The notes under the pieces were generated by a model. The model worked only from the letters and a program-made list of their open reading frames with translations. It made no database searches and had not been told where the DNA came from. A stretch of 42,356 nucleotides of DNA, taken from positions 1 through 42,356 of the forward strand of contig JAHBXU010000001.1 in the NCBI GenBank assembly GCA_019636315.1, read 5' to 3'. The DNA comes from Planctomycetaceae bacterium (GTDB lineage Bacteria > Planctomycetota > Planctomycetia > Planctomycetales > Planctomycetaceae). This document shows positions 25,417 through 38,495 of this stretch, piece after piece. The number at the start of each line of letters is the position of its first letter. The first letter of the stretch is position 1. The translations under genes and the position numbers were made by a program.

Positions 25417-25514
25417 GAGCCATCACTCCCCGACAAGGTTACTTCTCCGTGGCGATGCAATTCTGGACTACTGCCTCCGTAAGTGTCTTCTACCTTACCT
25501 CACGATATGTCAAG

Positions 25515-25751
25515 TCAAGCTGGCACTAAACAGTCAATTGAGATCACGCACCATTGGTACGGTTGGTGCGCACGACCGAGAATCTCTCGTTCCGCATCGA
25601 GCCAGTCGTCGAGCGCATGGTCTTCTCGGTAGCCCTTTTGCGCATACAATTCATAGGCGCACTTGATGATCAACTCGTGCACCTCCATCAATAGAATCTC
25701 GGGAGAGGACGCCACGCAAGTCTTGCCGTGAGACCTCCGATTCAAACGCAC
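25515..25751 (-). CDS. DUF2934-like small protein
   Basis: The segment IIKCAYELYAQKGYREDHALDDWLDAEREI matches the DUF2934 signature (A-Y-x-x-W/Y...G...DW-x-x-AE). The start is uncertain: either the GTG at 25751, which has an upstream GGAGAAGGA, or the ATG at 25688. Confidence 0.6.
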   Translation of the reverse strand: MRLNRRSHGKTCVASSPEILLMEVHELIIKCAYELYAQKGYREDHALDDWLDAEREILGRAHQPYQWCVISIDCLVPA

Positions 25752-25893
25752 GGTCCTCGCTTGTCCTTCTCCTTCTGCTTCCTGAGCATCAGACGTCGCT
25801 CTACTCCTTTGTCACCACGTGCCACCGGCGTCGTGGGTTGGATTATGGATTGATCCTCCTGGTGATTTCCGGTGCCTGTTATGAAACCGCTCT

Positions 25894-26958
25894 TCACATA
25901 AACGTGATGAGCGGCTTCAATATGCCGTCTGCCTTCGTTCTCATCAGGTCGAAGGCCTTTTCGATGTCATTGAATCGGAACCGATGCGTCGTCAGTGGGA
26001 GTGGATTGACCCGGCCGGTTTCCAAGAGTCGCATCAGCCGCTTCATCCGTTCGGCTCCCCCGGGGCAGAGACCCGTCCTGATCACCTTATCGCCCATCCC
26101 GACCCCCCACTCCTTGCGAGGCATCTGCACATAATCTCCTTCGCCATGGTATCCAATATTCGAGATCGTCCCGCCCGGACGCGTGGCCTTGACGCAGGCC
26201 TCGAAGGTCTCCTGAGCCCCCAAGGCCTCGATGGACGAGTCCACCCCCTGTCCGCCGGTCAAATCCAGAATGGCCCTGACCGGATCCTGTTCCTTGAAGT
26301 CCAGCACGACATCGGCCCCGAACTCTTTCGCTAGCTTCTTGCGCTGCGGGACCACCTCCACCGCAATGACCAAGCCGGCCCCCAATAACCGGGCCCCCAC
26401 GGTGGCCATCAGTCCGACTGGTCCCTGCGCGAAGACAGCCACTGCGCCCCCAACGGGAATGTTCGCATGCTCAGCTCCCATGAACCCGGTCGACATCATG
26501 TCCGTGCAGTAAGCCACCTGCTCATCTGTGAGACTCGGAGGAATCGTCGCCAGGTTCGCTTGCGCGCTGTTTACATGGAAATATTCGGCGAGATTCCCAT
26601 CCTTCACGTTCGCGAACTTCCACCCGCCGAGCATCTCGGTACATTGAGAGGTGTAACCGCGCAAACAGTTCTCGCACTGATAACAGGGCGTGATGGCGTT
26701 GACTGCGACTCGATCTCCCTCACGAAATCCCTTCACGGCGCTGCCCAATTTGTAAATGACCCCCACGGCCTCATGGCCCAGGGTCAGGTTGGTGCGTTCA
26801 CCGATCGCCCCGCCGACCGTATGGACATCGGACGTACAGACGAGTGCGGCGGTCGTCTTGACAACGGCATCGTTTGGTCCGGGATCAGGAATTGGCTTCT
26901 CCATCATCCCCACCGAGCCGAGCTTCTTCATGACAAATGCTTTCATGGTCTGGGCCAT
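25894..26958 (-). CDS. NADP-dependent zinc-type secondary alcohol dehydrogenase (TbADH/CbADH family)
   Basis: 354 aa, and collinear with my recollection of Thermoanaerobacter brockii secondary ADH. Matching segments are CTSDVHTV, GHEAVG, AITPC...GWKFANVKDG, GPVGLMA, PGGTISN and LCPGG...IEKAF. An AAGGAGGAG Shine-Dalgarno lies upstream. Confidence 0.9.
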   Translation of the reverse strand: MAQTMKAFVMKKLGSVGMMEKPIPDPGPNDAVVKTTAALVCTSDVHTVGGAIGERTNLTLGHEAVGVIYKLGSAVKGFREGDRVAVNAITPCYQCENCLRGYTSQCTEMLGGWKFANVKDGNLAEYFHVNSAQANLATIPPSLTDEQVAYCTDMMSTGFMGAEHANIPVGGAVAVFAQGPVGLMATVGARLLGAGLVIAVEVVPQRKKLAKEFGADVVLDFKEQDPVRAILDLTGGQGVDSSIEALGAQETFEACVKATRPGGTISNIGYHGEGDYVQMPRKEWGVGMGDKVIRTGLCPGGAERMKRLMRLLETGRVNPLPLTTHRFRFNDIEKAFDLMRTKADGILKPLITFM

Positions 26959-27090
26959 GGTTTGCTCCTCCTTATATCTGGATTGAGTTGGGGCTTCCTC
27001 CGCGCGATCTGACTTCTCAGACGCATCGATCTGTCAGCTTCGGCTTCCGAAAGCCCCGGTCTCATGCCTGCATGCCTCCTGAGGCTACGC

Positions 27091-28149
27091 TTATGCCATC
27101 AACACGTGTTCGCTACTTCTCAGAAATTCTTTGGCGATCCCCAAGGCCTGATCGGTTTTCTGAATCGACCGCTCTGCCTGTGACTCCAGTCCCGTCAGGG
27201 CCCGAATGGCATCAATAGTCTCCGGAACGACGATGGCTTGGTTAAACACTTGGTAGGTGTAGTAGGCCTCGTTCCCGTTCACCGTGAGCACATCTTCCCA
27301 CAGCGCCACTTCCCACAGATCTCCGCGTCGACGTCCCAAGTCGCTCATCAGCTCGATCGTGCTATTCAGCGCCGCCACCCCCTCGTGCATGCGAATGAAG
27401 GCGATCCGTGGTGCCAGGCGGAATGCGGCCAACAATTCCTCTTTGCTCGCCGAACGGGTCAGCTCCACCCACCAGGTGTGAAGATGGCTGCTGTTATGAG
27501 ACGCTTTGGCCGCGATCGTCACGACATCCAACTCCGGATCGACGGTCTTCGCATCCGGTCCCTGGTGGCTCGGTATGGTCTTTTCCGGAATGACGGTGTT
27601 CATGATGCCGTCCAGATGCGCTTCCCATGGATCCGATGCTCGACGGATCAGCGTGCCTCGCGCGCGTTTGAGGAGTCCGGCCTTCTTCAGGGCACCGAGC
27701 GTTCGCACGATCGAGGTCGTGTTGCATGAAACGACCCTGGTGCTGGAACGACCGATGGCCGTTTCATAATTGGCCTGGGCCACGAAGGAATGCCCAGTCA
27801 GCGCATGTGATTCGCCCCCCTGGTAGATTGCCTTCACACCTAACCGCTCATAGAGTATCTTGTTGGCAGCTCCGATTTTTTTGGGCGTGCAATCCGCCAC
27901 CACGTCGACCTTCCGGAGCAAGTCATCCAAGGTGCCAGCGACTGGGATGTCGGCTGCGCGCATCGCCTCGGCCTTGTCCGGCAGCGCAGCATAGATATCC
28001 AGCCCAAGGACCGCTGCCGTCTTGATCCGGTAGTCAGTCACGACATCGGCCACGCCGACTAATTCCATATCCTCCTGTTGCTTCACCGCATCGGCCACGC
28101 GCTTGCCGATCACCCCATAGCCATTGACTGCGACTTTGACCTTTCTCAT
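27091..28149 (-). CDS. gap: class II (archaeal-type) phosphorylating glyceraldehyde-3-phosphate dehydrogenase
   Basis: 352 aa. The N-terminus is VAVNGYGVIGKRVADAV. The active-site context is VVSCNTTS, which is the class II SCNTT motif rather than the bacterial class I SCTTNC. The length and overall layout match archaeal GAPDH. Confidence 0.88.
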   Translation of the reverse strand: MRKVKVAVNGYGVIGKRVADAVKQQEDMELVGVADVVTDYRIKTAAVLGLDIYAALPDKAEAMRAADIPVAGTLDDLLRKVDVVADCTPKKIGAANKILYERLGVKAIYQGGESHALTGHSFVAQANYETAIGRSSTRVVSCNTTSIVRTLGALKKAGLLKRARGTLIRRASDPWEAHLDGIMNTVIPEKTIPSHQGPDAKTVDPELDVVTIAAKASHNSSHLHTWWVELTRSASKEELLAAFRLAPRIAFIRMHEGVAALNSTIELMSDLGRRRGDLWEVALWEDVLTVNGNEAYYTYQVFNQAIVVPETIDAIRALTGLESQAERSIQKTDQALGIAKEFLRSSEHVLMA

Positions 28150-28167
28150 GGGTTCTCTCCTTCTCCA

Positions 28168-29370
28168 TTACTGGGATTGCTCGCTGAGCACGGCGATCCC
28201 AGGTAGTTCTTCACCGCCAATGAATTTCAACGATGCCCCTCCGCCTGTTGACACATGGCTGATCTCCGTCTCCAGTACTTCCGCTTTTCGCACCGCCGCC
28301 ACGGTGTCGCCGCCTCCCACCACCGTGAAGGCGCCACGCCAATGGGCCAGTGCCATGGCCCGCGCGATGTCGACTGTCCCGTCGGCACATTCATCGACTT
28401 CGAACGCGCCGAGGGGACCGTTCCAGAAGATGGTCCCGGTTCCTTGCAGCAACTCGTGCGCGAATGCCAGGGACGTATCGCGGCCGATATCCAATCCCAT
28501 AAAGCCTGCAGGGATCTCTCGATGGACGAGTTGCAGTCTGTCCCGCTGCTCCGCGTTAGCGGCAATGACGTGGTCCTCCGGCAGCAGAATGTGCTTTCGA
28601 TACTGCGCCAGCACGTCTTTGGCCCAGGGAATGAATTCAGGCTCGACCGGCGAATCACCCGTCGCCACGCCTTGGGCAGCCAGGAACGTATAGGCGATTC
28701 CGCCGCCCAGAAGGATGGTATCGGCCTTCGGCAGCAGCGCCTTCAACGCCGACAGCTTGTCCTTGATCTTGATCCCACCGACCACCACCCTGAAGGGACG
28801 AACGGGGCGATCGCGCACCTGACTCAGGACATCCATTTCCTTACGCACGAGAAAACCGGCCAGGCGGTCTGCGAAGAGTTGTGCTGCTCCGTACGTCGAA
28901 GCATGGGCCCGGTGCATCGTGCCGAAGGCATCGTTCACATAGAGCTCCGCCAGTGCGGCGAGTTGCTTGGCAAAGACCGGATCATTTGCCTCCTCGCCCG
29001 GTTCGAACCGCAGATTCTCGAGCAGCAGAACCTCTCCAGGCTTCAACGTGGTGAGCGCTTGTTTCACCGACTCGCCAACCGCCGCCTCGACGAACTTTAC
29101 TGTTGAGACTCTCAGAATCTGTCCAAGGCGATCAGCAACCGGTTTCAGCGACAGTGCTGGCACCACTTTCCCCTTGGGCTTTCCCAGATGGGAGGCGAGG
29201 ATCACTTTCGCGCCACGCTGGGAGAGGTATTCAATCGTCGGGATGGCTTGCCGAAGGCGGTAGTCCTCACGAATCCGACCGTGATCGAGAGGCACGTTGA
29301 AGTCCACACGAACCAAGACCGTTCGTTCTCGATAGCGATCATGGGGTAGATCAGAGATGATTCGTTTCAT
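28168..29370 (-). CDS. pgk: phosphoglycerate kinase
   Basis: 400 aa. It has RVDFNVPL near the N-terminus, FWNGPLGAFE, and GGGDTVAAV near the C-terminus. Confidence 0.95.
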   Translation of the reverse strand: MKRIISDLPHDRYRERTVLVRVDFNVPLDHGRIREDYRLRQAIPTIEYLSQRGAKVILASHLGKPKGKVVPALSLKPVADRLGQILRVSTVKFVEAAVGESVKQALTTLKPGEVLLLENLRFEPGEEANDPVFAKQLAALAELYVNDAFGTMHRAHASTYGAAQLFADRLAGFLVRKEMDVLSQVRDRPVRPFRVVVGGIKIKDKLSALKALLPKADTILLGGGIAYTFLAAQGVATGDSPVEPEFIPWAKDVLAQYRKHILLPEDHVIAANAEQRDRLQLVHREIPAGFMGLDIGRDTSLAFAHELLQGTGTIFWNGPLGAFEVDECADGTVDIARAMALAHWRGAFTVVGGGDTVAAVRKAEVLETEISHVSTGGGASLKFIGGEELPGIAVLSEQSQ

Positions 29371-29392
29371 CGGTCCGTCCTCCCTGTGAGTC

Positions 29393-31834
29393 TCAGTCAG
29401 TGGGTTGTGCGGCCCCCCGCTGTAAACCCTGTTCCAGTTTCAGAATGGCCATCGTGGTCTTCAGGACCGCGTCAGGGTTGAGCGAGATGCTGTCGATGCC
29501 TTGCTCGACCAAGAACGAGGCCACGTCTGGATAGTCGCTCGGGGCCTGTCCGCAGATGCCGATCTTCTTCCCCTTCTTCCGGGCCGTCGTAATCACCGAC
29601 GCCATCATTGATGTCACCGCCTGGTTACGCTCATCGAACAGATGGGCGATGATCTCGGAATCTCGATCCACCCCAAGCGTCAATTGGGTAAGATCGTTGG
29701 ACCCGATGGAGAATCCGTCAAAGACCTCAGCGAACTGATCCGCCAACACGACATTGCTCGGAACTTCGCACATGACGTAGATCTCGAGCCCGTTCTCACC
29801 GCGCGTAAGCCCATGCTTCGCCATTTCAGCCTGGACCAGTCGCCCTTCTTCGACGGTGCGGCAGAACGGGATCATGAGCTTCACGTTGGTGAGTCCCATC
29901 TCGCCACGGACTTTCTTCATCGCACGGCACTCCAAGGCAAACCCGGCCTGATAGCGTGAATCGTAGTAGCGAGACGCACCGCGGAAGCCGATCATAGGAT
30001 TTTCCTCTGTCGGCTCATAGCCCCTTCCGCCGATGAGGTTCGCGTATTCGTTGGATTTGAAGTCACTGAGTCGGACGATGACGTCCTTGGGATAGAAGGC
30101 TGCCGCAATCATCGCAACCCCTTGGGCCAGCTTGTCCACGAAGAACTGGGCCTTGTCGGCGTAGCCCACTGTCAGTCGGTCGATCTCAGCCTTGACCGCG
30201 GCATCGTCCAACCGGTCATAGTTGAGGAGTGCGAGGGGATGTACCTTTATATAGGTGGAGATGATGAACTCCTCTCTCGCCAGCCCGACGCCGTCATTGG
30301 GGATGAAGGACAACGCGAAGGCCTCTTCCGGATTTCCGACGTTCATCATGATCTTGGTCCTCGGTCTTGTGAGGTCGCTGAGCTCAACGCGCTGCACGGT
30401 GAAGGGGAGTGCCTCTTCATAGACAAATCCCGTATCACCCTCGGCACAGGACAGCGTGACCATCTGGCCGTCCCGCAGCACCTCCGTGGCATTGCCCGTT
30501 CCGACGATAGCCGGAACGCCGAGTTCTCGACTCACAATGGCGGCATGGCATGTTCTGCCGCCGCGATTCGTGATGATGCCTGACGCCTTCTTCATCACCG
30601 GCTCCCAATCCGGATCCGTCTTGTCCGTGACCAGCACGTCGCCGTCAGTGAAGTCGCGCAACTGCTGGAGGTGTTTGACGACGCGAACCGGCCCAAGGCT
30701 GATTTTGCTGCCGACACTTCGGCCGGTGAGCAGCACCTTGCCTTTCCGACCTAAGCGATACAGTTCGAGCGAGTCTTGGCGCTTTTGCGACTGCACGGTT
30801 TCCGGCCTGGCCTGGACGATAAAGAGTTCGCCCGTATGCCCGTCTTTCGCCCATTCCATATCCATGGGGCTGGTCCGACCCTTCTTGGCACTGTAATGGT
30901 CTTCGATCACGCAGGCCCATCGTGCCAACGTGAGAATCTCGTCGTCTGTGATCGCAAATCTGGCGCGATCATCGGGTGGAACCGGCACATTCTTGACCAA
31001 CTTGCTTCCGCCGACATCGTACACGAGCTTGAACTCTTTGCTGCCCAGTATCTTCTGGAGGATCGGCCGGAATCCCTGCCTGAGGGTGGGCTTGAAGACA
31101 TAGTATTCATCGGGATTCACGGCCCCTTGCACGACGTTTTCTCCTAATCCATAGGAGGCATTGATCAGCACGGCATCGCGAAAGCCGGTCTCCGTATCGA
31201 TCGAAAACATGATGCCGGATGCGCTCAGATCCGACCGCACCATGCGTTGGACACCGATCGACAGCGCAATCTTGAGGTGATCAAACCTCTTATCAACCCG
31301 ATAGGAGATCGCACGGTCCGTGAAGAGTGAGGCAAAACACCGCTTGCAGGCATCGAGCAGCGCCTGATGGCCCTGCACGTTGAGATACGTTTCCTGCTGG
31401 CCGGCAAAGCTGGCATCCGGAAGATCTTCTGCGGTTGCGCTGCTCCGGACCGCAACATCCACGAGATCAACATGCCCATCACTCAGCCGGTCATAGGCCT
31501 CTACGATGGCTTGTTCGAGATCCTGCTGGAGACTGGCCGCCAGCATGGCCTGACGGATCTGTCTCCCCCGCTGACGGAGATTGTCCAGGTCGCGCGTGTC
31601 CAGCCCATGGAGTATCTGTGTGATCCGCTGATCCAACCCGGTCTCGCGAAGAAACGAGCGATAGGCCTCGGCCGTAATGGCAAACCCATTGGGAACCTTC
31701 ACACCCCGTGAGGCCAATTCCCGGTACATCTCGCCCAGCGAGGCATTCTTACCCCCAACCAACGGGATATCGTCGATTCCAATGTCCTCAAACCAGCGGA
31801 TCCTGGCTTGGGTAGTGGTAGCGGTATACGACAT
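29393..31834 (-). CDS. ppsA: phosphoenolpyruvate synthase (pyruvate, water dikinase)
   Basis: 813 aa. It has an N-terminal ATP-grasp region (VGGKNASLGEM), a phosphohistidine motif (GGRTCHAAIVSRELGVPAIVG) and C-terminal PEP-utilising motifs (MCEVPSN, GSNDLTQLTLGVDRDS). Confidence 0.95.
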   Translation of the reverse strand: MSYTATTTQARIRWFEDIGIDDIPLVGGKNASLGEMYRELASRGVKVPNGFAITAEAYRSFLRETGLDQRITQILHGLDTRDLDNLRQRGRQIRQAMLAASLQQDLEQAIVEAYDRLSDGHVDLVDVAVRSSATAEDLPDASFAGQQETYLNVQGHQALLDACKRCFASLFTDRAISYRVDKRFDHLKIALSIGVQRMVRSDLSASGIMFSIDTETGFRDAVLINASYGLGENVVQGAVNPDEYYVFKPTLRQGFRPILQKILGSKEFKLVYDVGGSKLVKNVPVPPDDRARFAITDDEILTLARWACVIEDHYSAKKGRTSPMDMEWAKDGHTGELFIVQARPETVQSQKRQDSLELYRLGRKGKVLLTGRSVGSKISLGPVRVVKHLQQLRDFTDGDVLVTDKTDPDWEPVMKKASGIITNRGGRTCHAAIVSRELGVPAIVGTGNATEVLRDGQMVTLSCAEGDTGFVYEEALPFTVQRVELSDLTRPRTKIMMNVGNPEEAFALSFIPNDGVGLAREEFIISTYIKVHPLALLNYDRLDDAAVKAEIDRLTVGYADKAQFFVDKLAQGVAMIAAAFYPKDVIVRLSDFKSNEYANLIGGRGYEPTEENPMIGFRGASRYYDSRYQAGFALECRAMKKVRGEMGLTNVKLMIPFCRTVEEGRLVQAEMAKHGLTRGENGLEIYVMCEVPSNVVLADQFAEVFDGFSIGSNDLTQLTLGVDRDSEIIAHLFDERNQAVTSMMASVITTARKKGKKIGICGQAPSDYPDVASFLVEQGIDSISLNPDAVLKTTMAILKLEQGLQRGAAQPTD

Positions 31835-31867
31835 GTCTCAACTCCTTCTGCCACTTTTCTCGTGGCG

Positions 31868-32359
31868 CTATTTTTCAATGACGAAGCCCGCAGCCTTCCA
31901 GCCGTCCAATCCACCGTAGAGGCTCAGCACGTTCGCGTAACCGAGCATCCTCAGTACGGCTAACGCGATAGCACCCCGATGTCCGGTTTTGCAGTAGACA
32001 ATCAATGACGCCGCTTTGTCGCCCGGGAGGTCGTCGATGGCTGTCATGAGACTGCGGAGCGGGACGTTTTTGGCGCCCGGAATATGCTCAACCGCAAACT
32101 CGTTTGGTTCGCGTACATCGAGCACGTGGGGTACGCCGGTGGCGATCGCCTTCTCGGCCGCGACGCCCTTGATGCTGTAGTAGTCGTCGGGCATCGCGGC
32201 AAGCATCTGTTCTGCGGCGGTTCGCACCGGTGTTGACATCCACTCATGTGTCGCGGCGGCATCACTGACCTTCGCCGCATGTACCGGGCCGACCAGAACA
32301 GCGCACAGAACCAATGCGGTGCCGCTGCATGCTCGTTGTGCTAAGGCCATGGCTGCCAT
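31868..32359 (-). CDS. secreted single-domain rhodanese-like sulfurtransferase
   Basis: 163 aa. The Sec-type signal peptide (MAAMALAQRACSGTALVLCAVLVGPVHA) ends in VHA-AK. The rhodanese active-site loop is VYCKTGHRGAIA, followed by a C-terminal GGLDGW motif. Confidence 0.8.
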   Translation of the reverse strand: MAAMALAQRACSGTALVLCAVLVGPVHAAKVSDAAATHEWMSTPVRTAAEQMLAAMPDDYYSIKGVAAEKAIATGVPHVLDVREPNEFAVEHIPGAKNVPLRSLMTAIDDLPGDKAASLIVYCKTGHRGAIALAVLRMLGYANVLSLYGGLDGWKAAGFVIEK

Positions 32360-32435
32360 CCTCTCTCATCGATTGTGCGAGTTCTGTCGGCAGAAGAGCT
32401 GCCACCCCAGCATCACATACACGGGTCGGTCCCCT

Positions 32436-34064
32436 CTATTTCACTTCTCTCACCATGTCGATGGCGCCGCAGGGACATTCCTCCGCGCAGAGCCCGCATC
32501 CTTTACAGTAGTCGTAGTTGATCGCATACCGCTTCCCAGGTCCGAGCTTGATCACGGCGCTGTCGGGACACACCGCATAGCAGTTGTCACAGTTGAAGCA
32601 GTTGCCGCAGGACAGACAGCGGCGTGCCTCCAAGAGCGCGGTGTCCGCATCAAGGCCGCCGACGATCTCATCAAAACTCGACCGACGCCGCACCAGATTC
32701 AGTAACGGCTGCTTCGAGGCGTCTGCGTCGGTGTAGTACCAGGTGTTCAAACGGCTGAAGGTCGCCGGCTCATGAGCTTCCGGTTTGACGTACGCGGAGC
32801 CGCGCAAATAGGCATCGATGTGGCGGGCGGCCTTCTTCCCCTGGCCGGTGGCCACCGTGACGGATTGCTCGCCTGGCACCATGTCTCCGCCGGCGAAGAT
32901 ACCGGGACGGCCAGTCATCATCGTCCCATCCACTTCGATGGTTCCGTCCTCCCGTACACGCAACCCGGATACCCGACGAAGAAAACCGGTATCGGCCCGT
33001 TGCCCCAACGCCAGAATCACGCTATCGGCTTCGATCCTTTCGAAGCGACCGGTCGGTTGTGGTTTCCCTTGTTCATCGAGTGCCATTTCCTCGACTGTCA
33101 ATGTCGATTCGTCACCTTGCGCGATCCTTCGTAGCCATTGGAACTGCACGCCTTCGTCCTGGGCTTCCGTGATTTCGCTGGCAAACGCCGGCGCATGGCC
33201 CAAATCTCGACGGTAAATAATGATGACCGGTTCCATCCCCAACCGCTCGACACTGCGTGCCACGTCGATGGCCGTGTTGCCTCCACCGTAGATCGCGACG
33301 CGGCGTCCTAGCTTGGGGCGAGCCGCCCCTTCCATGTCGCGCAAGAACGTGACGGCATCGAGAACCCGCTTGGCATCGACCCCCGGAATTTCGACGCGCC
33401 GGGCTAGATGCGCGCCAAGCGCGAGAAAGGCGGCGTCGAATCGTCCTTCCGCCATGGTCGCCTCAAGATCGTCGACTCGGCTGTTCAGCCTAATCGTGAC
33501 ACCCATGGATTGAATTCTTGCGACTTCGGCATCCACGATCTCACGCGGCAGTCGGTACTTGGGGATGCCGTACCGCATCATGCCGCCAGCTTGTGGACCG
33601 GCTTCATGAATGGTGACCTGATGCCCCATCCGAGCCAAGTGATAGGCCGTGGAGAGTCCGCCTGGACCGGCGCCGATGACCAACACGTTCTTCCCCGTCC
33701 GTGGAGCGCACGCCACCCGCCACCCTTGCGCGATCGCCTGATCACCCAGGAACCGTTCCACCGCGTGAATGCTGACGGCCTCATCGATATGCCCACGATT
33801 ACAGGCGCTTTCACAGGGGTGATAACAGACGCGGCCGTGGATCGCGGGCATCGGGTTGTCCTGCATGAGCTGTTGCCATGCTTCTTCGTAGGCCCCTTCT
33901 TCAGCATGATAGAGCCAGGCCTGAATGTTCTCGCCGGCCGGGCAGGCGTGGTTGCACGGTGGCAAGCGATCGACATAGATCGGTTTCATCGTGCGCCAGT
34001 TTCCCGTGTGGTTGGCCAGGCTCGTGTTCGGATCGAGCGTGATGGCAAATGGTGTGCGTTCCAT
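32436..34064 (-). CDS. GltD/NfnB-like NAD(P)H-dependent flavoprotein with a C-terminal 2x[4Fe-4S] ferredoxin (OFOR-delta-like) domain
   Basis: 542 aa. GltD-type N-terminal Cys motifs are PPCNHACPAGENIQ and GRVCYHPCESACNRG. Two dinucleotide-binding motifs are present (VLVIGAGPGGLSTA, VAIYGGGNTAID), plus GIFAGGD. Two CxxCxxCxxxCP motifs occur (CFNCDNCYAVCP, CKGCGLCAEECP). The gene starts 8 nt after the OFOR beta gene. Confidence 0.85.
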   Translation of the reverse strand: MERTPFAITLDPNTSLANHTGNWRTMKPIYVDRLPPCNHACPAGENIQAWLYHAEEGAYEEAWQQLMQDNPMPAIHGRVCYHPCESACNRGHIDEAVSIHAVERFLGDQAIAQGWRVACAPRTGKNVLVIGAGPGGLSTAYHLARMGHQVTIHEAGPQAGGMMRYGIPKYRLPREIVDAEVARIQSMGVTIRLNSRVDDLEATMAEGRFDAAFLALGAHLARRVEIPGVDAKRVLDAVTFLRDMEGAARPKLGRRVAIYGGGNTAIDVARSVERLGMEPVIIIYRRDLGHAPAFASEITEAQDEGVQFQWLRRIAQGDESTLTVEEMALDEQGKPQPTGRFERIEADSVILALGQRADTGFLRRVSGLRVREDGTIEVDGTMMTGRPGIFAGGDMVPGEQSVTVATGQGKKAARHIDAYLRGSAYVKPEAHEPATFSRLNTWYYTDADASKQPLLNLVRRRSSFDEIVGGLDADTALLEARRCLSCGNCFNCDNCYAVCPDSAVIKLGPGKRYAINYDYCKGCGLCAEECPCGAIDMVREVK

Positions 34065-34072
34065 AGGTGCCT

Positions 34073-35074
34073 CTATTCCATCAGTCCATAAACAGCGATG
34101 TTGTCATCTGCCATTGCTTGGATCGCGGCGAGGGCTTCCGTGTCCTGCGGCGGACCGAACAGATGCTTGAATCGAGTCTGTAGCTCCAGATAGCGTTCGA
34201 CAGGAACTTTGCGGCGAATCGGCGTGGAGCAGATGACTTTTCCGAATTCGGCCTCGAACAGAGGGAACAGCCCGGATTCCACCGCCAGGCGCGCCACCTT
34301 CATCGTGTGTGCGGGGTCCGAGCCCCACCCCAGCGGACAAGGCACGTGCACATGGATATACCGAGCCCCGCGAACACCGATCGCCTTCGTGACTTTTCGT
34401 TCCAGGTCATGGAGATCGGCCACAGAGGCCGTCGCGACATAGGGGATCCCATGCGCGAGGGCAATCCGTGGCACGTTCTTCCCGTTCCCAATCGGGTTGC
34501 CGGGATGCTCACCCACGGCTTGCGTCGTGTTGGTTCGGGCGAACGGAGGGGTCGCCCCCGAGCGTTGGATGCCGGTGTTCATGTAGGCTTCGTTGTCGTA
34601 ACAGAGATACAGGACGTCATCGTTTCGCTCAAACATCCCGGACAGACAACCGAACCCAATGTCGACCGTCGCTCCGTCACCCCCTTGCGCGATCACCGTC
34701 ACGTCGTCACGCCTCTTGGCACGAAGCGCCGCGGCGATCCCGCTCGCCACCGCCGGTGCATTGCCGAACAGCGAATGCATCCAGGGAATTTGCCAAGCGC
34801 TTTCGGGATAGGGGCTGGAAAAGACCTCCAGACAGCCGGTTGCATTCACGGCAATCAATTGATTGTGGCTGGCACGCATGGCGGCATCGAGCGCGTAACG
34901 CGCCCCCAGCGCTTCGCCGCAACCTTGGCAGGCTCGGTGACCGGAGTTGAGCGAATTGGTCCGATCCAACCGGGATTGGACGGTCCGCGTCGCTTCATCG
35001 AGCAAACGGTTCCCAGCCGTGAAGGTGCCGGTCTGATAAAACTTTATGCGTTCCGTCGTCATCGCCTCGTCCAT
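34073..35074 (-). CDS. 2-oxoacid:ferredoxin oxidoreductase beta (TPP-binding) subunit
   Basis: The real start is judged to be the internal ATG at 35074 (MDEAMTTERIKF), which overlaps the alpha stop by 1 nt (TGATG). It has an ACQGCGE Cys motif and a TPP motif (AQGGDGATVDIGFGCLS). The 125-aa N-terminal extension in the track ORF is Arg/Cys-rich and overlaps the alpha gene. Confidence 0.9.
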   Translation of the reverse strand: MDEAMTTERIKFYQTGTFTAGNRLLDEATRTVQSRLDRTNSLNSGHRACQGCGEALGARYALDAAMRASHNQLIAVNATGCLEVFSSPYPESAWQIPWMHSLFGNAPAVASGIAAALRAKRRDDVTVIAQGGDGATVDIGFGCLSGMFERNDDVLYLCYDNEAYMNTGIQRSGATPPFARTNTTQAVGEHPGNPIGNGKNVPRIALAHGIPYVATASVADLHDLERKVTKAIGVRGARYIHVHVPCPLGWGSDPAHTMKVARLAVESGLFPLFEAEFGKVICSTPIRRKVPVERYLELQTRFKHLFGPPQDTEALAAIQAMADDNIAVYGLME

Positions 35075-36327
35075 CAACTCACTTTCGTTCCGATCACATT
35101 CATGGTTTGCAGCATATGCTCCGCGACTGGACCAGCCCGTCGGATGTCGCGCCGTCGAGCGAGCTCCTGCTCGATCACTGTCTTGTTGAGGTCCAAGAAG
35201 TACGGTTCTGTCAGACGTTCTGCACGAGCTTCCAGGATCATGTGCTTCAACGAAGATGTGGAGATGGAACGTCCTCCCAATCCTGCAATGACGGTGTGGA
35301 CGGAAATCTGCCGTCCTTGGAGCGCTGATTGGACGTCGGCAGAGACGATCCCTCCCATGCCGACGGCAAGGTCTTTCTCCACTACAATCACCCGCGTCGT
35401 CTTTTCTAGCAGTGCGCTTACCTGAAACTTCGGAAAGGGCCGATAGCATCCGATTTTGACGCAGCCGACCCGGACACCTGTGTTTCGCAGTTCGTCCACG
35501 GCGTCTTTGATCGTTCCGATGACCGACCCCATAGCAATCACCGCGATGTCGGCATCCTCCATGCGATAAGCGGAGCAGAGTCCGCCGGATCGTCGCTGAA
35601 AATGTTGCTCGAAGGCCTCCACCAATTCCGGCATGACCTCTAGCGCTCGAAGATGTTGTTGGTGCAAGAAATATTTAACTTCGGTAAACGCCTCCGGCCC
35701 CACCATGGCGCCGATGGAAACCGGACGTTCAGGATCAAGGACCTGTACCGGATCATAGGGAGGAAGATAGGCATTCACCTGAACGGCGTCCGGCACGTCC
35801 ACTGGTTCGTAGGCGTGCGTCAGCACATACCCGTCCATGCAGACCATCACCGGGCAACTCAGCGATTCGGCTAGACGGAACGCTTGAATGTGGAGATCGA
35901 CGGCGTCCTGATTATCCTCGGCAAACAACTGAATCCACCCAGCATCGCGCAACGCCATGCTGTCCGAATGATCGTTCCAAATATTGATCGGCGCGCCGAT
36001 CGCCCGGTTGGCGATGGTCATGACAATCGGGAGTCCTAGTCCGGCTACGTTGTAGACCGCCTCGGCCATAAAGAGCAGCCCCTGACTGCTCGTCGCCGTG
36101 TAGGTCCTCGCGCCGGAAGCCGAGGCGCCAATCAGGACACTCAAGGCGGCAAACTCGGATTCTACGTTCAGAAACTGGCAGCGTCCGATGTGGCCCTGCT
36201 TGGTCTTGCGTGATAACCGTTCGACAATGTGCGTCTGTGGGGAAATGGGATAGGCCGCAATGACCTCAGGTTGGCAGAGTGCAATAGCCTCAGCCACGGC
36301 TTGGGAACCCTCAATCTGCATGCGCAT
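35074..36327 (-). CDS. 2-oxoacid:ferredoxin oxidoreductase alpha subunit
   Basis: The internal ATG at 36327 gives MRMQIEGSQAVAEAIALCQPEVIAAYPISPQTHIVE, a typical PorA/VorA N-terminus. It overlaps the gamma 3' end by 17 nt. Confidence 0.9.
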   Translation of the reverse strand: MRMQIEGSQAVAEAIALCQPEVIAAYPISPQTHIVERLSRKTKQGHIGRCQFLNVESEFAALSVLIGASASGARTYTATSSQGLLFMAEAVYNVAGLGLPIVMTIANRAIGAPINIWNDHSDSMALRDAGWIQLFAEDNQDAVDLHIQAFRLAESLSCPVMVCMDGYVLTHAYEPVDVPDAVQVNAYLPPYDPVQVLDPERPVSIGAMVGPEAFTEVKYFLHQQHLRALEVMPELVEAFEQHFQRRSGGLCSAYRMEDADIAVIAMGSVIGTIKDAVDELRNTGVRVGCVKIGCYRPFPKFQVSALLEKTTRVIVVEKDLAVGMGGIVSADVQSALQGRQISVHTVIAGLGGRSISTSSLKHMILEARAERLTEPYFLDLNKTVIEQELARRRDIRRAGPVAEHMLQTMNVIGTKVS

Positions 36328-36913
36328 GGTGTACGATTCCCCTTTGTTCAGTAATAGAAGTGGTGACAACGTCAAACGCTTCCCGCGCGGCAGCCCGATT
36401 CGCCTCCCCGACCGCACCTGGGAATTTCTGCTGAATCGCTGACTCCACGGAGGCAAGCCGGATCAGTCCGGTGATCGCGGCGAACGCACCCAGCAGTGGC
36501 CCATTGGCAATGGGTCGCTTGAGGTATTTCAGCCCGAGGTCCGTGGCAGAGAACGCACACACATGGCCGAGGGGCAGCGTTGAGAGAAATTCCTCAATGT
36601 GGAGTGCATCGAGGGTCTGGGTCGAATTGATCAACACAAACCCGAGGGGGGCGAGCCCTCCGAACAAGTCGACCTGATGCAGGAGCGTCGGATCCTGAAT
36701 GATGACAACATCAGGGCGCGTCACCGTTTCGCGCGTGCGGATGGCTCCCTCAGCGACGCGGCAGAACGCCACAACCGGTGCTCCCATCCGTTCCGACCCG
36801 AAGCTCGGAAAGGCCTGGGCATATTTGCCGTCCATGAACGCCGCCATCGCGAGCAGTTCTGCCGCCGTCACGACCCCTTGCCCACCCCGCCCATGAATGC
36901 GGATTTGCCACAT
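36311..36913 (-). CDS. 2-oxoacid:ferredoxin oxidoreductase gamma subunit
   Basis: MWQIRIHGRGGQGVVTAAELLAMAAF is the gamma-subunit GRGGQG motif. The start is ambiguous among the ATGs at 36913, 36925 and 36931. The track's longer start at 37033 adds an Arg-rich, non-conserved extension. Confidence 0.85.
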   Translation of the reverse strand: MWQIRIHGRGGQGVVTAAELLAMAAFMDGKYAQAFPSFGSERMGAPVVAFCRVAEGAIRTRETVTRPDVVIIQDPTLLHQVDLFGGLAPLGFVLINSTQTLDALHIEEFLSTLPLGHVCAFSATDLGLKYLKRPIANGPLLGAFAAITGLIRLASVESAIQQKFPGAVGEANRAAAREAFDVVTTSITEQRGIVHHAHAD

Positions 36914-37565
36914 CGTGTTTCTCATCACCATCCACCGACCATGCTGATCATACGCTCGGCTCCAACGTGCTCTGGTACGCGCAGTGTGTAGATACCTGGT
37001 CGGCTCAACTGCGGTACTACACCGCCGTTTCAACTGAGAGGATCAACGGCCAGGAAGACCTAATTCCACACGAGGCCTCGGCATTCAAGAACGATCTCAT
37101 CACGCTCGCAGCTCCGAAAACGAATGACGACGCCCGCGATCCGACGGTTCCTATCCGTCTGGCTCTCCATGGACACCTCTCTTGGGTACGATGTTGGGAG
37201 ACGTCGAATCTCCGACAAGATCCACTCCGTCTCCTGCGCCAGCCGTTGAGCACTGCAATTTCACGAAGTTACTGTCACATCAACTCCGCGACTCAATGTT
37301 GGACATTGGGGAGATTGGAAACAATTTCGAGATGACGCTGTGAAGAAACTCCCCAGAAATACACCTTTCTTGATCTGACTGGATGACCTCGTGACTAAGG
37401 CGCAAGGTCCAGCAATTGCCGCAAGGGACACACGTGACCGCTGATGGAACCGATATTGGTCTTGATAATGCTCAGGGTGATGTTCTTGGCTGCACTGCCT
37501 TGTGGAGACCCTGGCTTGTCTCGACAGACAATGAATTGCTCGGCGCGTCAACGCCACGGCAAATC

Positions 37566-37814
37566 CTATTTGGTGACTGCGCGATCCAGAATGACTCGTT
37601 CTGCATCCAGCCAATCTTCGAGGTGGTAGCCATTTCGGCAGCCGCGCTCAACATACAGTTCATAGGCTCGTGCCGTGATGCGGGCGTGTAAATCGTCGAC
37701 TGCAGCTTGTGCCGAACCTGCTGCTTTGCGAGTTGACACAGGCACGTTAGGCTGCTCAACCTGCATCGTGTGCGGTTTCTTCTCCCGGAACGGTTGTGTC
37801 GTCTGAGCCTTCAT
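37566..37814 (-). CDS. DUF2934-like small protein (paralogue of 25515..25751)
   Basis: The ATG at 37814 is preceded by an AAAGGAGA Shine-Dalgarno. The C-terminal half (ITARAYELYVERGCRNGYHLEDWLDAERVIL) carries the DUF2934 signature. Confidence 0.65.
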   Translation of the reverse strand: MKAQTTQPFREKKPHTMQVEQPNVPVSTRKAAGSAQAAVDDLHARITARAYELYVERGCRNGYHLEDWLDAERVILDRAVTK

Positions 37815-38027
37815 GAGCGTCTCCTTTAACGCTAAAAAGTTTTTCCCTCCGTACGAGTCTCCTTGCTGGAAAGAACGCCAACAGCCCGTCATTCTGTGCA
37901 ACTCCGCACGCGCATGTGATGGAGTCACCCAATAGGCCCGCAGAAACGTTCCGCGCATCAGCACTGAAAACACCACCGCGAACACTGGGCCAGAAGACAT
38001 CCACGTTCAGGCCCCCGTCCTCTCACC

Positions 38028-38267
38028 TCACACTCTGGCGTACTGCCGCGCGTCGTGGAAGACATCGCTCGCGAGATGGACCGTGTAGCACCCTCGCTCT
38101 TTAGGCATCAGCCGGAGCGCCCCCTCTCGACTGAGCCGATCAATGACGATGAAGACTTGATTCCATGTGAGCTCCGGGCATTCGAGCACGATATCATCGA
38201 GAGTGCGCCCCTGTGACCGCACAATCACTTCCAGCACTCGATCATCCGTCTCATGGTGACTCATCAT
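38028..38267 (-). CDS. hypothetical small protein, winged-helix/FeoC-like pattern
   Basis: 79 aa, starting at the ATG ATG at 38267/38264, which is preceded by an AGGAGG Shine-Dalgarno. The sequence RVLEVIVRSQGRTLDDIVLECPELTWNQVFIVIDRLSREGALRL has the pattern of small wHTH proteins. I recognise no family with confidence. Confidence 0.5.
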   Translation of the reverse strand: MMSHHETDDRVLEVIVRSQGRTLDDIVLECPELTWNQVFIVIDRLSREGALRLMPKERGCYTVHLASDVFHDARQYARV

Positions 38268-38313
38268 TTCCCCTCCTGCGCAATCACATGACGTTCCTAT
38301 GGATCCCGCACAC

Positions 38314-38329
38314 TGCAGCATGGGTGCCA
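38314..38329 (-). promoter_or_regulatory. sigma-54 (-24/-12)-like promoter element, TGGCAC-N5-CTGCA
   Basis: The minus strand reads TGGCACCCATGCTGCA, against the consensus TGGCAC-N5-TTGCW. It has the correct GG/GC spacing and lies about 45 nt upstream of the 38267 start codon. Confidence 0.3.
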
Positions 38330-38495
38330 GTTACAAATTCTCGGGGCGGGTTTCTTCAGATCCTCAGAACAACGGGAGCTTACGCGGGAGGAAGAGAGGA
38401 CGGTGCGGACGGATCGCGCTGCATCATGGGGAGTTTCGGTACATTCATTCCCGCCTGGTTGTCGCAGACTTCCTCAACGATGTGGCTAAATACTT

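Follow-up and report, generated by a model that had tools for sequence, protein, structure and literature searches.

Introduction

In Nitrospira marina, a cluster of porCAB and a flavoprotein gene, which encodes a 2-oxoacid oxidoreductase (OFOR), was reported to be induced at low O2, with spectral counts rising from about 0–2 to 3–12, while those of the main PorA were about 115–135 (PMC8115632). The UspA adjoining this cluster was up 5.7-fold and the phosphofructokinase pfkA_1 about fourfold at low O2 alongside the OFOR unit, and the same report describes induction of a group 3b hydrogenase (PMC8115632). Bayer et al. read the cluster as a more efficient, higher-activity CO2-fixing POR (PMC8115632). 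Pyruvate has also been reported as a carbon source of Nitrospirales (PMC12342949).

Here we analysed a 42,356-nt stretch of DNA (the window) in which this four-gene unit is followed by a rhodanese gene, ppsA, pgk, gap2 and an alcohol dehydrogenase (ADH) gene. The contig is Nitrospira-like, yet it was placed in the bin of another, non-Nitrospira organism. Our preferred reading, to which we give a probability of about 0.45, is that these nine genes form an accessory island in a Nitrospira genome, variable between strains, and serve as a kit for the pyruvate node centred on NADP(H).

Results

The block lies at 36913–25894 on the minus strand, where profile searches identified nine intact ORFs matching their families end to end.

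36914–37565, minus strand: presumed promoter/regulatory region 5ʹ of porC, ~650 nt, in which no credible gene was found
36311–36913, minus strand: porC, OFOR gamma subunit, 200 aa, ATG at 36913; PF01558, E 2.5e-34
35074–36327, minus strand: porA, OFOR alpha subunit, 417 aa; POR_N 226 bits, PFOR_II 99.5 bits
34073–35074, minus strand: porB, OFOR beta (TPP-binding) subunit, 333 aa; PF02775 (TPP_enzyme_C)
32436–34064, minus strand: GltD/NfnB-like FAD/NAD(P)H iron-sulfur flavoprotein with C-terminal PorD-like 2x[4Fe-4S] domain, 542 aa; NF009410
31868–32359, minus strand: single-domain rhodanese; PF00581, E 2.5e-20
29393–31834, minus strand: ppsA, PEP synthase (pyruvate, water dikinase), 813 aa; all three domains
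28168–29370, minus strand: pgk, second, divergent phosphoglycerate kinase copy, 400 aa; PF00162, 441 bits
27091–28149, minus strand: gap2, type II (archaeal-type) phosphorylating GAPDH, 352 aa; NF003251, TIGR01546
25894–26958, minus strand: Zn-dependent ADH, NADP-dependent secondary-alcohol (TbADH/CbADH) type, 354 aa; ADH_N + ADH_zinc_N

The porC start was picked via the profile alignment. porC and porA overlap by 17 nt, the porB start overlaps the porA stop (TGATG), and from porB onward the gaps are, in order, 8, 76, 33, 22, 18 and 132 nt. The ORFs, junctions and family matches bear out the sequence-only reading, which had named the same genes in this order, all in one direction, with overlaps or gaps of at most 76 nt except for the 132 nt before the ADH gene. 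It had also given every gene a Shine-Dalgarno sequence, and purine-rich stretches of this kind do precede the starts; they stand out before ppsA, pgk, gap, adh and porA, and the one before porC is weak. As the minus strand holds nearly every long family-matched ORF from 2517 to 41404 of the window, the co-direction of the nine genes says little by itself. Internal promoters or terminators, named beforehand as signs of a split block, did not emerge: simple scans for both gave nothing beyond shuffle expectation, the terminator scan showed none on the coding strand between genes, and an Rfam search found no element.

Upstream of porC, at ~36935–37175, we found the remnant, broken by two stops, of a small ORF that other strains have ahead of porC. 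Its homologue of 80–81 aa is intact in three related loci (L083, L108 and L109), and the window copy carries TAG and TGA stops in frame. Homology between the window and L108 starts exactly at the porC start.

All three OFOR subunits were compared with family models. PorC scored 194.8 against TIGR02175 PorC_KorC (cut-off 81) and 201 against the PorC equivalog NF040683, under its cut-off of 270. PorA reached 443 against PorA_Arch NF040682, under the cut-off of 550, with pyruvate-type models beating the VOR (286), PadG (267) and oxalate (244) models, and its best solved relative was the alpha subunit of a four-subunit PFOR (9bt4_B, 362 bits; oxalate oxidoreductase, 213 bits). PorB scored 338 against PorB NF008819, under the cut-off of 405, and 281 against the VOR beta model. 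The OFOR is thus a putative pyruvate-type enzyme, its specificity being only putative because the subunits fall under the NCBIfam equivalog cut-offs.

The flavoprotein scored 738 against NF009410 (cut-off 516), with Fer4_20 and Pyr_redox_2 domains, and residues 483–540 form a PorD-like 2x[4Fe-4S] tail (TIGR02179 PorD_KorD 72 over residues 487–540, cut-off 60). Its nearest solved chains are the NfnB-type modules 9bov, 8oh5_C, 9n5u, 5jca_L and 4ylf_B and the PFOR delta subunit 9bt4_G; these relatives are NADPH-binding NfnB/GltD modules, including subunits of electron-bifurcating Nfn-type enzymes. Loci with porC, porA, porB and the flavoprotein gene span Proteobacteria, Acidobacteriota, Actinomycetota, Planctomycetota and Nitrospirota, and porCAB precedes the flavoprotein gene, with order kept, in essentially all of ~80 loci, indicating a self-contained four-gene unit. 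Across phyla this unit has no constant neighbours. Among ~80 OFOR loci in other phyla, a ppsA-like gene adjoins it in only one, immediately upstream of porC in an actinobacterial locus (L076), and gap in none, and pgk and adh likewise show no linkage to it there, in line with the earlier remark that such linkage is uncommon.

The remaining genes also matched specific families. The rhodanese begins with a signal-like hydrophobic segment in its translation, MAAMALAQRACSGTALVLCAVLVGPVHA; L084 has no such gene between those for the flavoprotein and PEP synthase, the other Nitrospira loci examined have none either, and it is found only in the strain type of the window. PpsA scored 1231 against NF005057 (cut-off 598) and 1213 against TIGR01418 (cut-off 740). 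The block pgk gave 441 bits with PF00162, versus ~535 bits for housekeeping Nitrospira pgk. Gap2 scored 455 against NF003251 (cut-off 185) and 337 against TIGR01546 (cut-off 233); among solved structures it is closest to archaeal GAPDHs (1cf2, 2czc, 2yyy and 1b7g), and bacterial relatives with 70–78% identity are known from Cupriavidus, Methylibium, Rubrivivax, Anaerolineae and Ca. Manganitrophus. The ADH matched NADP-dependent isopropanol/secondary ADH structures over its full length (E about 1e-103). The three redox enzymes in the block thus all come from families that use NADP(H).

The flavoprotein was present in 4, gap2 in 2 and block-type ppsA in 20 of the 151 Nitrospiraceae species representatives, and no representative had all three. 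ppsA and gap2 were mostly found apart from OFOR, and most of the 20 ppsA carriers were without the OFOR unit. L083 and L109 encode flavoproteins 92–93% identical to that of the window, yet are without the ppsA–adh cassette; in L083 a DUF1207 gene directly follows the flavoprotein gene, and in the window the DUF1207 gene lies 14.4 kb further on. L108, from an independent assembly, reproduced the order flavoprotein 3ʹ part–rhodanese–ppsA–pgk–gap2–adh–DUF2934–TolC at about 100% nucleotide identity; L108 itself combines sequence from two strain types. The porCAB–flavoprotein unit, ppsA, pgk–gap2, adh and the rhodanese gene are separately inherited pieces. The dedicated module from acetyl-CoA to triose phosphate proposed in the sequence-only reading is not supported as a conserved unit, given this independent inheritance, the close strains without the cassette and the absence of all three genes together from any of the 151 representatives.

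Synteny in relatives, which that reading had suggested comparing, gave a divided answer: ppsA and/or pgk–gap2 lie beside OFOR in four Nitrospira lineages, but gene orders differ and the cassette is missing from L083 and L109. ppsA directly follows the flavoprotein gene in L084, is three genes further along in two comammox genomes and follows the rhodanese gene in the window; pgk–gap2 is 3ʹ of the OFOR unit in G105/L092 and 5ʹ of it in L084, where a frameshifted adh remnant also lies beside OFOR. As the related loci are kin, the four lineages cannot be counted as independent cases. That these lineages keep ppsA and/or pgk–gap2 near OFOR despite rearrangement nevertheless suggests a functional tie between them.

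Alternatively, the genes may be chance neighbours in a plastic, strand-biased region, the only real functional units being porCAB–flavoprotein and perhaps pgk–gap2. This would fit the single transcription direction across the window, close strains without the cassette, flanks of the window unlike those of L108/L109 with an efflux system in the same variable stretch, an OFOR unit without constant neighbours across phyla, ppsA and gap2 mostly apart from OFOR, and a periplasmic rhodanese in mid-block. However, each of these genes is rare in the family, and in 4-Mb genomes chance would hardly place ppsA and/or pgk–gap2 only a few kb from OFOR in four Nitrospira lineages that differ in gene order, and once in an actinobacterium; moreover, gaps of 8–33 nt without terminator-like hairpins suggest co-transcription of at least ppsA–pgk–gap2, probably more. 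We consider chance the least probable of the explanations weighed here.

Four related Nitrospira genomes (G105, G205, G062 and G180) each have, elsewhere, a class I gap adjoining a high-scoring pgk, as well as a ~1000-aa PPDK and two further OFOR alpha genes, which the literature ascribes to five-subunit POR/OGOR, and G105 has both pgk types. These copies indicate that the block holds spares. A role of the block as the route out of the rTCA cycle was not upheld, given these genes and the assignment of the rTCA role to the abundant five-subunit POR/OGOR (PMC8115632).

Discussion

The flavoprotein had been proposed to feed pyruvate synthesis with reducing power. NAD(P)H lies at about −320 mV and the pyruvate/acetyl-CoA + CO2 couple at about −500 mV, roughly 200 mV apart. 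Reductive carboxylation of acetyl-CoA with NAD(P)H as the direct donor has to climb this difference (25–40 kJ/mol), and electrons pass downhill when they go from pyruvate to NAD(P)+. The NAD(P)-linked OFORs known to us, namely phenylglyoxylate:NAD+ oxidoreductase, the 2-oxoglutarate:NADP+ oxidoreductase of Azoarcus and the pyruvate:NADP+ oxidoreductase of Euglena, are all oxidative. Neither the window nor most of the ~80 loci encode a high-potential partner with which electrons could be bifurcated. With this uphill step and no bifurcation partner in the block, the proposed role is questionable, pyruvate synthesis driven by NAD(P)H being doubtful on thermodynamic grounds.

These points weigh on a reading of the block as an anabolic line from acetyl-CoA + CO2 through pyruvate, PEP and 1,3-BPG to triose phosphate, a low-O2 alternative to the five-subunit POR, PPDK and class I GAPDH, with OFOR as a pyruvate synthase supplied with electrons by the flavoprotein. 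Gene order mirrors pathway order, and the enzymes are classically gluconeogenic: bacterial PEP synthase works towards PEP, and type II GAPDH with PGK is a gluconeogenic pair in archaea. A comammox locus combines ppsA with acetyl-CoA synthetase, an FBPase/IMPase-family gene, TreT and an extra GAPDH, and acetyl-CoA synthetase lies 5–9 kb from the OFOR unit there and in L085, which fits this line and counts against our preferred scheme. The kinship of the flavoprotein with Nfn NADPH subunits, together with an NfnA/PyrK-like gene (NAD_binding_1 + DHODB_Fe-S_bind) 4 kb downstream in L084, means that bifurcation could in principle give low-potential electrons. The CO2-fixing interpretation of the N. 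marina cluster by Bayer et al. (PMC8115632) agrees with it, but spectral counts reaching only about 5–10, against about 115–135 for the main PorA, are too low for a main carboxylase. Moreover, G105 is without block-type ppsA, the comammox genomes are without gap2 and N. marina has neither beside the unit, and the ADH and rhodanese are left unplaced. Overall, we regard this line as unlikely.

A catabolic or fermentative survival route would run from glycogen or trehalose to triose phosphate, through type II GAPDH (yielding NADPH) and PGK (yielding ATP) to PEP and pyruvate, and on to acetyl-CoA, CO2 and NAD(P)H, with NADP+ regenerated from NADPH by the secondary ADH or else by a group 3b hydrogenase, and PPS reversed, as in Thermococcus, or used in later recovery. 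The roughly fourfold rise of pfkA_1 at low O2 and the hydrogenase induction given in the N. marina report (PMC8115632) accord with it, as do the NADP(H)-using families of all three redox enzymes. Genes for phosphoketolase, glycogen debranching enzyme, glycogen phosphorylase and a GH65/beta-PGM fusion lie 9–20 kb downstream on the same contig and strand; pta adjoins pgk–gap2 in L084, and phosphoketolase is convergent to a 73% identical type II gap on Cupriavidus-type contigs. This proximity of phosphoketolase or pta to gap2 again counts against our preferred scheme. In L092, genes for a protoglobin-GGDEF protein, a hibernation factor and Usp are close by. On the other side, no glycolytic PEP synthase is known in bacteria, where pyruvate kinase or PPDK would suffice, type II GAPDH is anabolic in the studied archaea, the block is without acetaldehyde dehydrogenase, acetate kinase and hydrogenase, and the ADH type favours secondary alcohols or ketones. 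We know of no fermentation demonstrated for Nitrospira. This route seems less likely still.

In our preferred reading, the OFOR–flavoprotein unit, extra ppsA, extra pgk–gap2, secondary ADH and exported rhodanese would form a kit around the pyruvate node, sharing NADP(H) as redox carrier, for oxygen limitation, stress or mixotrophy. Pyruvate would most likely be the hub: OFOR would oxidise one part to acetyl-CoA and CO2, passing electrons via the Fe-S chain and FAD to NAD(P)+, and another share would go through PEP synthase, PGK and type II GAPDH to triose phosphate, using up that NADPH. Enolase and phosphoglycerate mutase would come from elsewhere, and the ADH may act as an additional NADPH valve. 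The downhill path of electrons from pyruvate, the oxidative character of the NAD(P)-linked OFORs named above, the NADPH-binding relatives of the flavoprotein, the gluconeogenic direction of bacterial PEP synthase and of the archaeal GAPDH/PGK pair, and the reported use of pyruvate by Nitrospirales (PMC12342949) speak for this scheme. This particular flux scheme is tentative, since sequence alone fixes no direction. The CO2-fixing direction proposed by Bayer et al. for the N. marina cluster is the opposite one.

The accessory, modular and low-oxygen-linked character of the block is probable. Usp genes lie 3ʹ of the OFOR unit in five Rhodoferax-type loci, UspA adjoins the N. marina cluster, and the protoglobin, hibernation and Usp genes of L092 point to the same link with low oxygen and stress. 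The block would then be an add-on kit varying by strain, not the main conserved path from fixed CO2 to sugars. Low-oxygen induction is only extrapolated to ppsA–pgk–gap2, because N. marina has the OFOR unit without these neighbours.

Gene content and junctions of the block

The block of nine genes read from the sequence alone, with its junctions and ribosome-binding sites, was reproduced by ORF, profile and start-codon analyses. The nine ORFs run on the minus strand from 36913 down to 25894, and their family matches in profile searches are essentially full length.

Table. Genes of the block in order from 36913 down to 25894, with profile scores and cut-offs.
porC, minus strand: PF01558; TIGR02175, 195 versus a cut-off of 81
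porA, minus strand: POR_N and PFOR_II domains
porB, minus strand: TPP_enzyme_C domain
flavoprotein (542 aa), minus strand: NF009410/PRK12771, 738 versus a cut-off of 516; N-terminal Fer4_20, pyridine-nucleotide-disulfide oxidoreductase core and C-terminal PorD-like dicluster
rhodanese, minus strand: single domain, signal-like N-terminus
PEP synthase (ppsA), minus strand: TIGR01418, 1213 versus a cut-off of 740
PGK (pgk), minus strand: bacterial type
type II GAPDH (gap2), minus strand: NF003251, 455 versus a cut-off of 185; nearest solved relatives archaeal
Zn-ADH (adh), minus strand: nearest solved relatives are NADP-dependent secondary ADHs of Thermoanaerobacter/Clostridium (E ~1e-103)

Start-codon analysis placed two overlaps inside porCAB, followed by gaps of 8, 76, 33, 22, 18 and 132 nt, and located purine-rich stretches suited to ribosome binding before the block genes. 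Of the two features expected of an operon, short gaps without terminators were found (overlaps, 8–76 nt and one of 132 nt), while a gene set and order conserved among relatives was found for porCAB and the flavoprotein alone. The tight spacing is compatible with co-transcription. The shared direction, which had been emphasized in the sequence-only reading, does exist but is little evidence for a unit: of the long ORFs between 2517 and 41404 that match a family, almost all are on the minus strand, so that co-direction is a property of the contig.

No regulatory element stood out. Scans of the window for sigma-70 promoters and intrinsic terminators with simple models gave nothing above shuffle expectation, and the folding of four intergenic spacers yielded no hairpin followed by a U-tract, the gap–adh spacer being somewhat structured (z = -2.7) with no U-tail. 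An Rfam scan of 25000-38500 with E up to 0.1 returned zero matches, and the FNR/CRP-type box TTGAT-N4-ATCAA, with two mismatches or fewer, occurred 13 times versus 13.9 expected, none of the matches being convincingly placed. When the regions upstream of porC at seven Nitrospira loci were searched for common k-mers, a conserved operator was not found, and the sole common stretch was a small ORF. This ORF, of 80-81 aa, is conserved upstream of porC in three Nitrospira loci (L083, at 6897-7139, L108 and L109). In the window its counterpart (36935-37175, minus strand) survives as a remnant, interrupted in frame by a TAG and a TGA stop. About 1 kb upstream of the remnant, an intact ORF of 97 aa (38028-38321, minus strand) contains a region ~70% identical in nucleotides to the small ORF and is probably its paralogue. 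Inspected by eye, the predicted product of the small ORF suggests a winged helix, and it could be a candidate dedicated regulator of the OFOR unit.

Origin of the contig

Dozens of flavoprotein relatives share 74-99% identity with that of the window, and every named closest match is labelled 'Nitrospira sp.'. The bin that holds the contig (G000) consists of 1149 contigs and is 72.5% complete; among its GTDB relatives, which have genomes of 5-10 Mb, 59 of 60 lack the flavoprotein. The second pgk of the bin (contig C562) and its class I gap (contig C429) are only ~45-60% identical to Nitrospira housekeeping genes, and none of the other OFOR alpha genes in the bin matches a Nitrospira locus. The window comprises the entire contig (C1), which is Nitrospira-like by protein identity and was most likely mis-binned. 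Counting paralogues within the bin was discarded on the same three grounds, as the bin represents another organism, and the bona fide Nitrospiraceae genomes G062, G105, G180 and G205 were therefore used as host proxies.

A metagenomic contig, L108 (ENA ERZ27296362 k141_182057), carries all nine genes in the window order, but it is mosaic: up to ~160 nt into the flavoprotein gene (locus position ~10160) its sequence agrees with that of another Nitrospira locus, L109 (100% identity), and from there with that of the window (~100%). The homology between the window and L108 starts exactly at the porC start, and the flanks upstream are unrelated. Either the assembly of L108 is chimeric, or Nitrospira strains that co-occur have very recently exchanged DNA here by homologous recombination; as a mosaic, L108 was rejected as independent proof of the whole block and independently confirms the downstream part only.

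The OFOR unit is self-contained and widely spread

The OFOR has separate alpha, beta and gamma subunits, all three of which were recognized by Pfam through their POR_N/PFOR_II, TPP_enzyme_C and POR domains. Their top matches are pyruvate-type models, which rank above the VOR, Pad and oxalate models; the NCBIfam equivalog cut-offs, taken as a proxy for pyruvate specificity, were not reached (PorA 443/550, PorB 338/405, PorC 201/270). No separate gene for a small free delta subunit is present in the unit. A PorD-like domain instead forms residues 487-540 of the 542-residue flavoprotein (TIGR02179, 72 versus a cut-off of 60) and matches the PFOR delta subunit 9bt4_G. Residues 5-540 of the flavoprotein align to positions 18-565 of the 566-position NF009410 profile, that is, over the whole protein, and its closest solved relatives are NADPH-binding NfnB/GltD modules. 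From these matches, the most fitting description of the enzyme is an OFOR of the POR type into which an NAD(P)H module of the PRK12771 family is integrated.

A scan with one genome per species yielded more than 590 relatives of the flavoprotein. Among the 80 best loci of these, porC-porA-porB precedes the flavoprotein gene wherever the flank is available, in Beta-, Alpha- and Gammaproteobacteria, Bryobacteraceae, Solirubrobacterales/Thermoleophilia, Phycisphaerales and Nitrospirota. In the same 80 loci, ppsA, pgk, gap and adh are absent beside the unit, with one exception: in L076, from an actinobacterial MAG, porC is immediately preceded by a ppsA-like gene. Other neighbours recur by lineage, such as sdhCAB in Casimicrobiaceae-type loci and Usp with a B12-type ribonucleotide reductase in Rhodoferax-type loci. 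Neighbour clustering over the 77 non-Nitrospira loci, for which a naive ORF caller was used that produced many antisense artefacts in high-GC DNA, revealed neither an NfnA-like partner nor a gluconeogenic gene among the recurrent neighbours. The OFOR is an already-known, self-contained and widely spread unit, which is rare in Nitrospiraceae (4 of 151 sampled species representatives).

The known member closest to this case is the cluster of N. marina, in which gamma, alpha and beta genes are likewise joined by a flavoprotein of ~544 aa that replaces the free delta subunit, and which adds an accessory third OFOR to two enzymes of five subunits each (Bayer et al., PMC8115632). The N. marina unit was almost undetectable in air and reached 3-12 spectral counts at ~5.6 uM O2, compared with ~115-135 counts for the main five-subunit PorA (PMC8115632). 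It is adjoined by a UspA gene, which was 5.7-fold up (PMC8115632), whereas the window has ppsA-pgk-gap2-adh at this place; the 'putative PEP synthase' annotated in N. marina is encoded elsewhere and was undetected in the proteome (PMC8115632). The 'four-subunit POR' was described as restricted to lineage IVa and marine Nitrospirales (PMC8115632). Many proteins of the unit from MAGs and metagenomic contigs are labelled 'Nitrospira sp.', and two comammox genomes carry the unit with amoC in the vicinity; this published distribution is therefore too narrow, and the actual spread is wider and patchy.

The attached genes vary among strains

The block had been taken for a dedicated module, but the synteny of its relatives does not support a conserved one: porCAB and the flavoprotein alone are kept, and the ppsA-pgk-gap2-adh cassette is either missing or rearranged. 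It is absent from L083 (flavoprotein 92% identical to that of the window), L109 (93%), L085, L086 and L089. The OFOR genes of L083 are ~83% identical in nucleotides to those of the window, and its flavoprotein gene is directly followed by DUF1207 and by genes resembling those of Tc toxins, while an integrase and ParAB are encoded upstream. Compared with L083 (11630-12400), the window (17052-32435) has ~14.4 kb of extra DNA between the flavoprotein and DUF1207 genes, reaching from rhodanese to adh and continuing with DUF2934 and a TolC (TolC-fusion)/HlyD/ABC efflux system. Unrelated small genes follow the OFOR unit in L109.

The order is rearranged in the other relatives. L084 (88%) has an NTP-transferase, pgk, gap2, pta, an adh remnant, porCAB, the flavoprotein, ppsA and a pgk fragment. 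In the Nitrospiraceae genome G105 (locus L092, 85%), porCAB and the flavoprotein are followed by pgk and gap2, with Zn-ADH, a hibernation factor and Usp downstream. Two comammox genomes (74-75%) carry an additional class I-type GAPDH, an IMPase/FBPase-family gene and acetyl-CoA synthetase, followed after further genes by porCAB, the flavoprotein, one other gene, a GalT-like gene, TreT and ppsA.

Two of these loci contain further genes of note. Past ppsA and the pgk fragment of 90 aa, L084 (14447-16462) encodes a multi-cluster Fe-S protein of 370 aa and an NfnA/PyrK-like protein of 269 aa (NAD_binding_1 and DHODB_Fe-S_bind), which is absent from the window; by its domains, the latter is a possible candidate for the high-potential partner of an Nfn-type flavoprotein. 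At L092, a protoglobin-GGDEF sensor gene (5117-6217) lies upstream of and divergent from porC, and a ribosome hibernation factor/CSD fusion and Usp (18485-21629) are found downstream at a distance of a few kb, a context that hints at control by oxygen or dormancy.

The neighbourhood might be mere chance, but each partner gene is rare in the family, which makes their proximity in four lineages and in four different orders unlikely to be fortuitous. The four lineages are kin, and the proximity therefore does not count as four independent events. We regard pure chance as quite unlikely, and take the gene neighbourhoods to be genuine, if moderate, support for a functional link at the pyruvate node.

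The cassette enzymes are spare copies

The PEP synthase has its three domains (PPDK_N, mobile His and PEP-binding) and matches NF005057 end to end (1231 versus a cut-off of 598). The GAPDH is clearly of type II (TIGR01546, 337 versus a cut-off of 233), with a score of only 19 for the class I model NF011954, and its nearest structures are 1cf2, 2czc, 2yyy and 1b7g. It belongs to a bacterial clade with 70-78% identity in Cupriavidus, Methylibium, Rubrivivax, Anaerolineae and Ca. Manganitrophus. In two contexts of this clade, the type II gap sits beside an ABC1/UbiB kinase: in Cupriavidus metallidurans-type loci (L093 and L094) and in Ca. Manganitrophus (L095), a gene 73-78% identical to that of the window directly follows the kinase, and in the former it is convergent to a phosphoketolase.

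A role of the block as the core route from the rTCA cycle to triose phosphate is not supported by the host proxies, which carry class I gap-pgk, PPDK and two other OFOR alpha genes elsewhere. G205, G062 and G180 have one pgk each (~535 bits), adjoining class I gap. G105 has this housekeeping pair and a second, window-type pgk (437-441 bits) that adjoins the type II gap in the OFOR locus. A PPDK of ~1000 aa and two further OFOR alpha genes occur in all four proxies. The rTCA function has been assigned to the abundant five-subunit POR/OGOR (PMC8115632), to which, according to the literature, the two further alpha genes belong. Window-type ppsA was found in 20 and gap2 in 2 of the 151 Nitrospiraceae representatives, mostly without the OFOR unit and not neighbouring each other; none of the 151 had the OFOR flavoprotein, window-type ppsA and gap2 together. 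Judged by these gene inventories, the genes of the block beyond the OFOR unit are spare copies. The block is neither a new pathway nor the main carbon-fixation exit, and the accepted picture of Nitrospira carbon fixation is unchanged by it. Our results show that it is an accessory, modular island, the OFOR unit of which is induced at low oxygen in a relative.

Direction of flux and significance

The acetyl-CoA + CO2/pyruvate couple has a potential of about -500 mV and NADP+/NADPH one of about -320 mV, so that pyruvate would pass electrons to NAD(P)+ downhill and the opposite transfer would be steeply uphill. To our knowledge, all NAD(P)-linked OFORs characterized so far are oxidative. PEP synthase favours PEP formation, type II GAPDH and PGK are the gluconeogenic pair of archaea, and archaeal type II GAPDH prefers NADP(H). 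Given the NfnB/GltD relatives of the flavoprotein, the archaeal GAPDH type and the NADP-type ADH, we infer NADP(H) as the probable common currency of the block. Pyruvate assimilation has been reported for Nitrospirales (PMC12342949). Considering the downhill redox step, the oxidative precedents, the PEP-forming and gluconeogenic enzymes and this assimilation together, we favour a scheme in which pyruvate is the hub, to which we assign a probability of roughly one in three. The OFOR would oxidize part of the pyruvate and charge NADPH, PEP synthase, PGK and type II GAPDH would lift the other part to triose phosphate at the expense of NADPH, and the ADH might serve as a further NADPH outlet.

The fully reductive line of the sequence-only reading, from acetyl-CoA to triose phosphate, appears doubtful. 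It accords with the gene order, with the ACS, FBPase-like and TreT neighbours and with the authors' reading of the N. marina data (PMC8115632), but it needs energy coupling such as flavin-based bifurcation, and no partner is encoded in the window. A specific form of coupling would be that the NfnB-like flavoprotein makes the OFOR a bifurcating (or otherwise energy-coupled) NADPH-dependent pyruvate synthase, feeding a private NADPH-driven gluconeogenic line of PEP synthase, the second PGK and the archaeal-type GAPDH. We consider this very improbable. If it were true, an aerobic nitrifier would carboxylate acetyl-CoA without a free low-potential ferredoxin pool, which would amount to a ferredoxin-independent bypass of that step in rTCA-based autotrophy which is most sensitive to oxygen and costly in energy. 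A line that is wholly catabolic and fermentative is unlikely as well: phosphoketolase, pta and glycogen genes are nearby and a phosphofructokinase was up in N. marina at low O2 (PMC8115632), but PEP synthase fits poorly into such a line.

The new element is the arrangement, in which some Nitrospira strains have spare lower-EMP enzymes of NADP(H)-using families attached to a low-O2 OFOR. In soils, waters and treatment plants, Nitrospira are the main nitrite oxidizers, and their ways of dealing with low oxygen, starvation and organic carbon are of practical concern. Beside the core rTCA and gluconeogenesis genes, some strains have a spare set of NADP(H)-family enzymes centred on pyruvate and triose phosphate, and this set adjoins the only OFOR for which a response to low oxygen is known. 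The block is a testable candidate for strain-level differences in mixotrophy or hypoxia tolerance, and a natural setting in which to study the direction and cofactor of the OFOR-flavoprotein enzyme.

Comparison with known systems

A literature search for biochemical studies of an OFOR-GltD fusion or of PadF-type subunits yielded nothing usable, and a preprint mentioning Nitrospira and phosphoketolase was set aside because it concerns Brocadia. With the canonical PorABCD of Pyrococcus, Thermotoga and methanogens (9bt4), the OFOR of the window shares separate alpha, beta and gamma genes, pyruvate-type best family and structure matches and a delta-type 2x[4Fe-4S] domain. However, the canonical delta subunit is a free protein of 80-100 aa, whereas here the delta module lies within a FAD/NAD(P)H flavoprotein of 542 aa, and NAD(P)+, not free ferredoxin, is predicted to accept the electrons. 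The enzyme is predicted to work like a four-subunit POR, from which it departs in the free delta subunit and in the equivalog scores.

NAD(P)-linked 2-oxoacid oxidoreductases are known in the phenylglyoxylate:NAD+ oxidoreductase PadEFGHI of Azoarcus/Aromatoleum and the pyruvate:NADP+ oxidoreductase of Euglena. The likeness lies in an OFOR core wired to a pyridine-nucleotide flavoprotein, with direct NAD(P)+ reduction from a 2-oxoacid. The Pad models match the OFOR of the window weakly (PadE 148, PadG 267 and PadI 184 bits, with cut-offs of 300-700), the Euglena enzyme has a module of the P450-reductase type in contrast to the GltD/NfnB type here, and the substrates differ.

By their family matches, the remaining block genes are ordinary members of their own families. 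The ADH matches the NADP-dependent secondary ADH of Thermoanaerobacter brockii/Clostridium beijerinckii over its full length (residues 5-352 versus 1-350, E ~1e-103); the host here is an aerobic nitrifier, and no acetone- or acetaldehyde-forming enzyme was found near adh in the window. The archaeal gluconeogenic set of PEP synthase, PGK and phosphorylating type II GAPDH (Thermoproteus, Pyrococcus/Thermococcus) is resembled in the type II GAPDH with its archaeal nearest structures, but its hosts are archaea, while the GAPDH of the window falls into a bacterial clade (Proteobacteria, Chloroflexota and Nitrospirota) and the PGK is of bacterial type. In bacteria with two GAPDHs, such as Bacillus subtilis with GapA and GapB, a second set likewise stands beside the housekeeping one, and by this analogy the second GAPDH/PGK set of the block may share the work with the first according to direction or cofactor.
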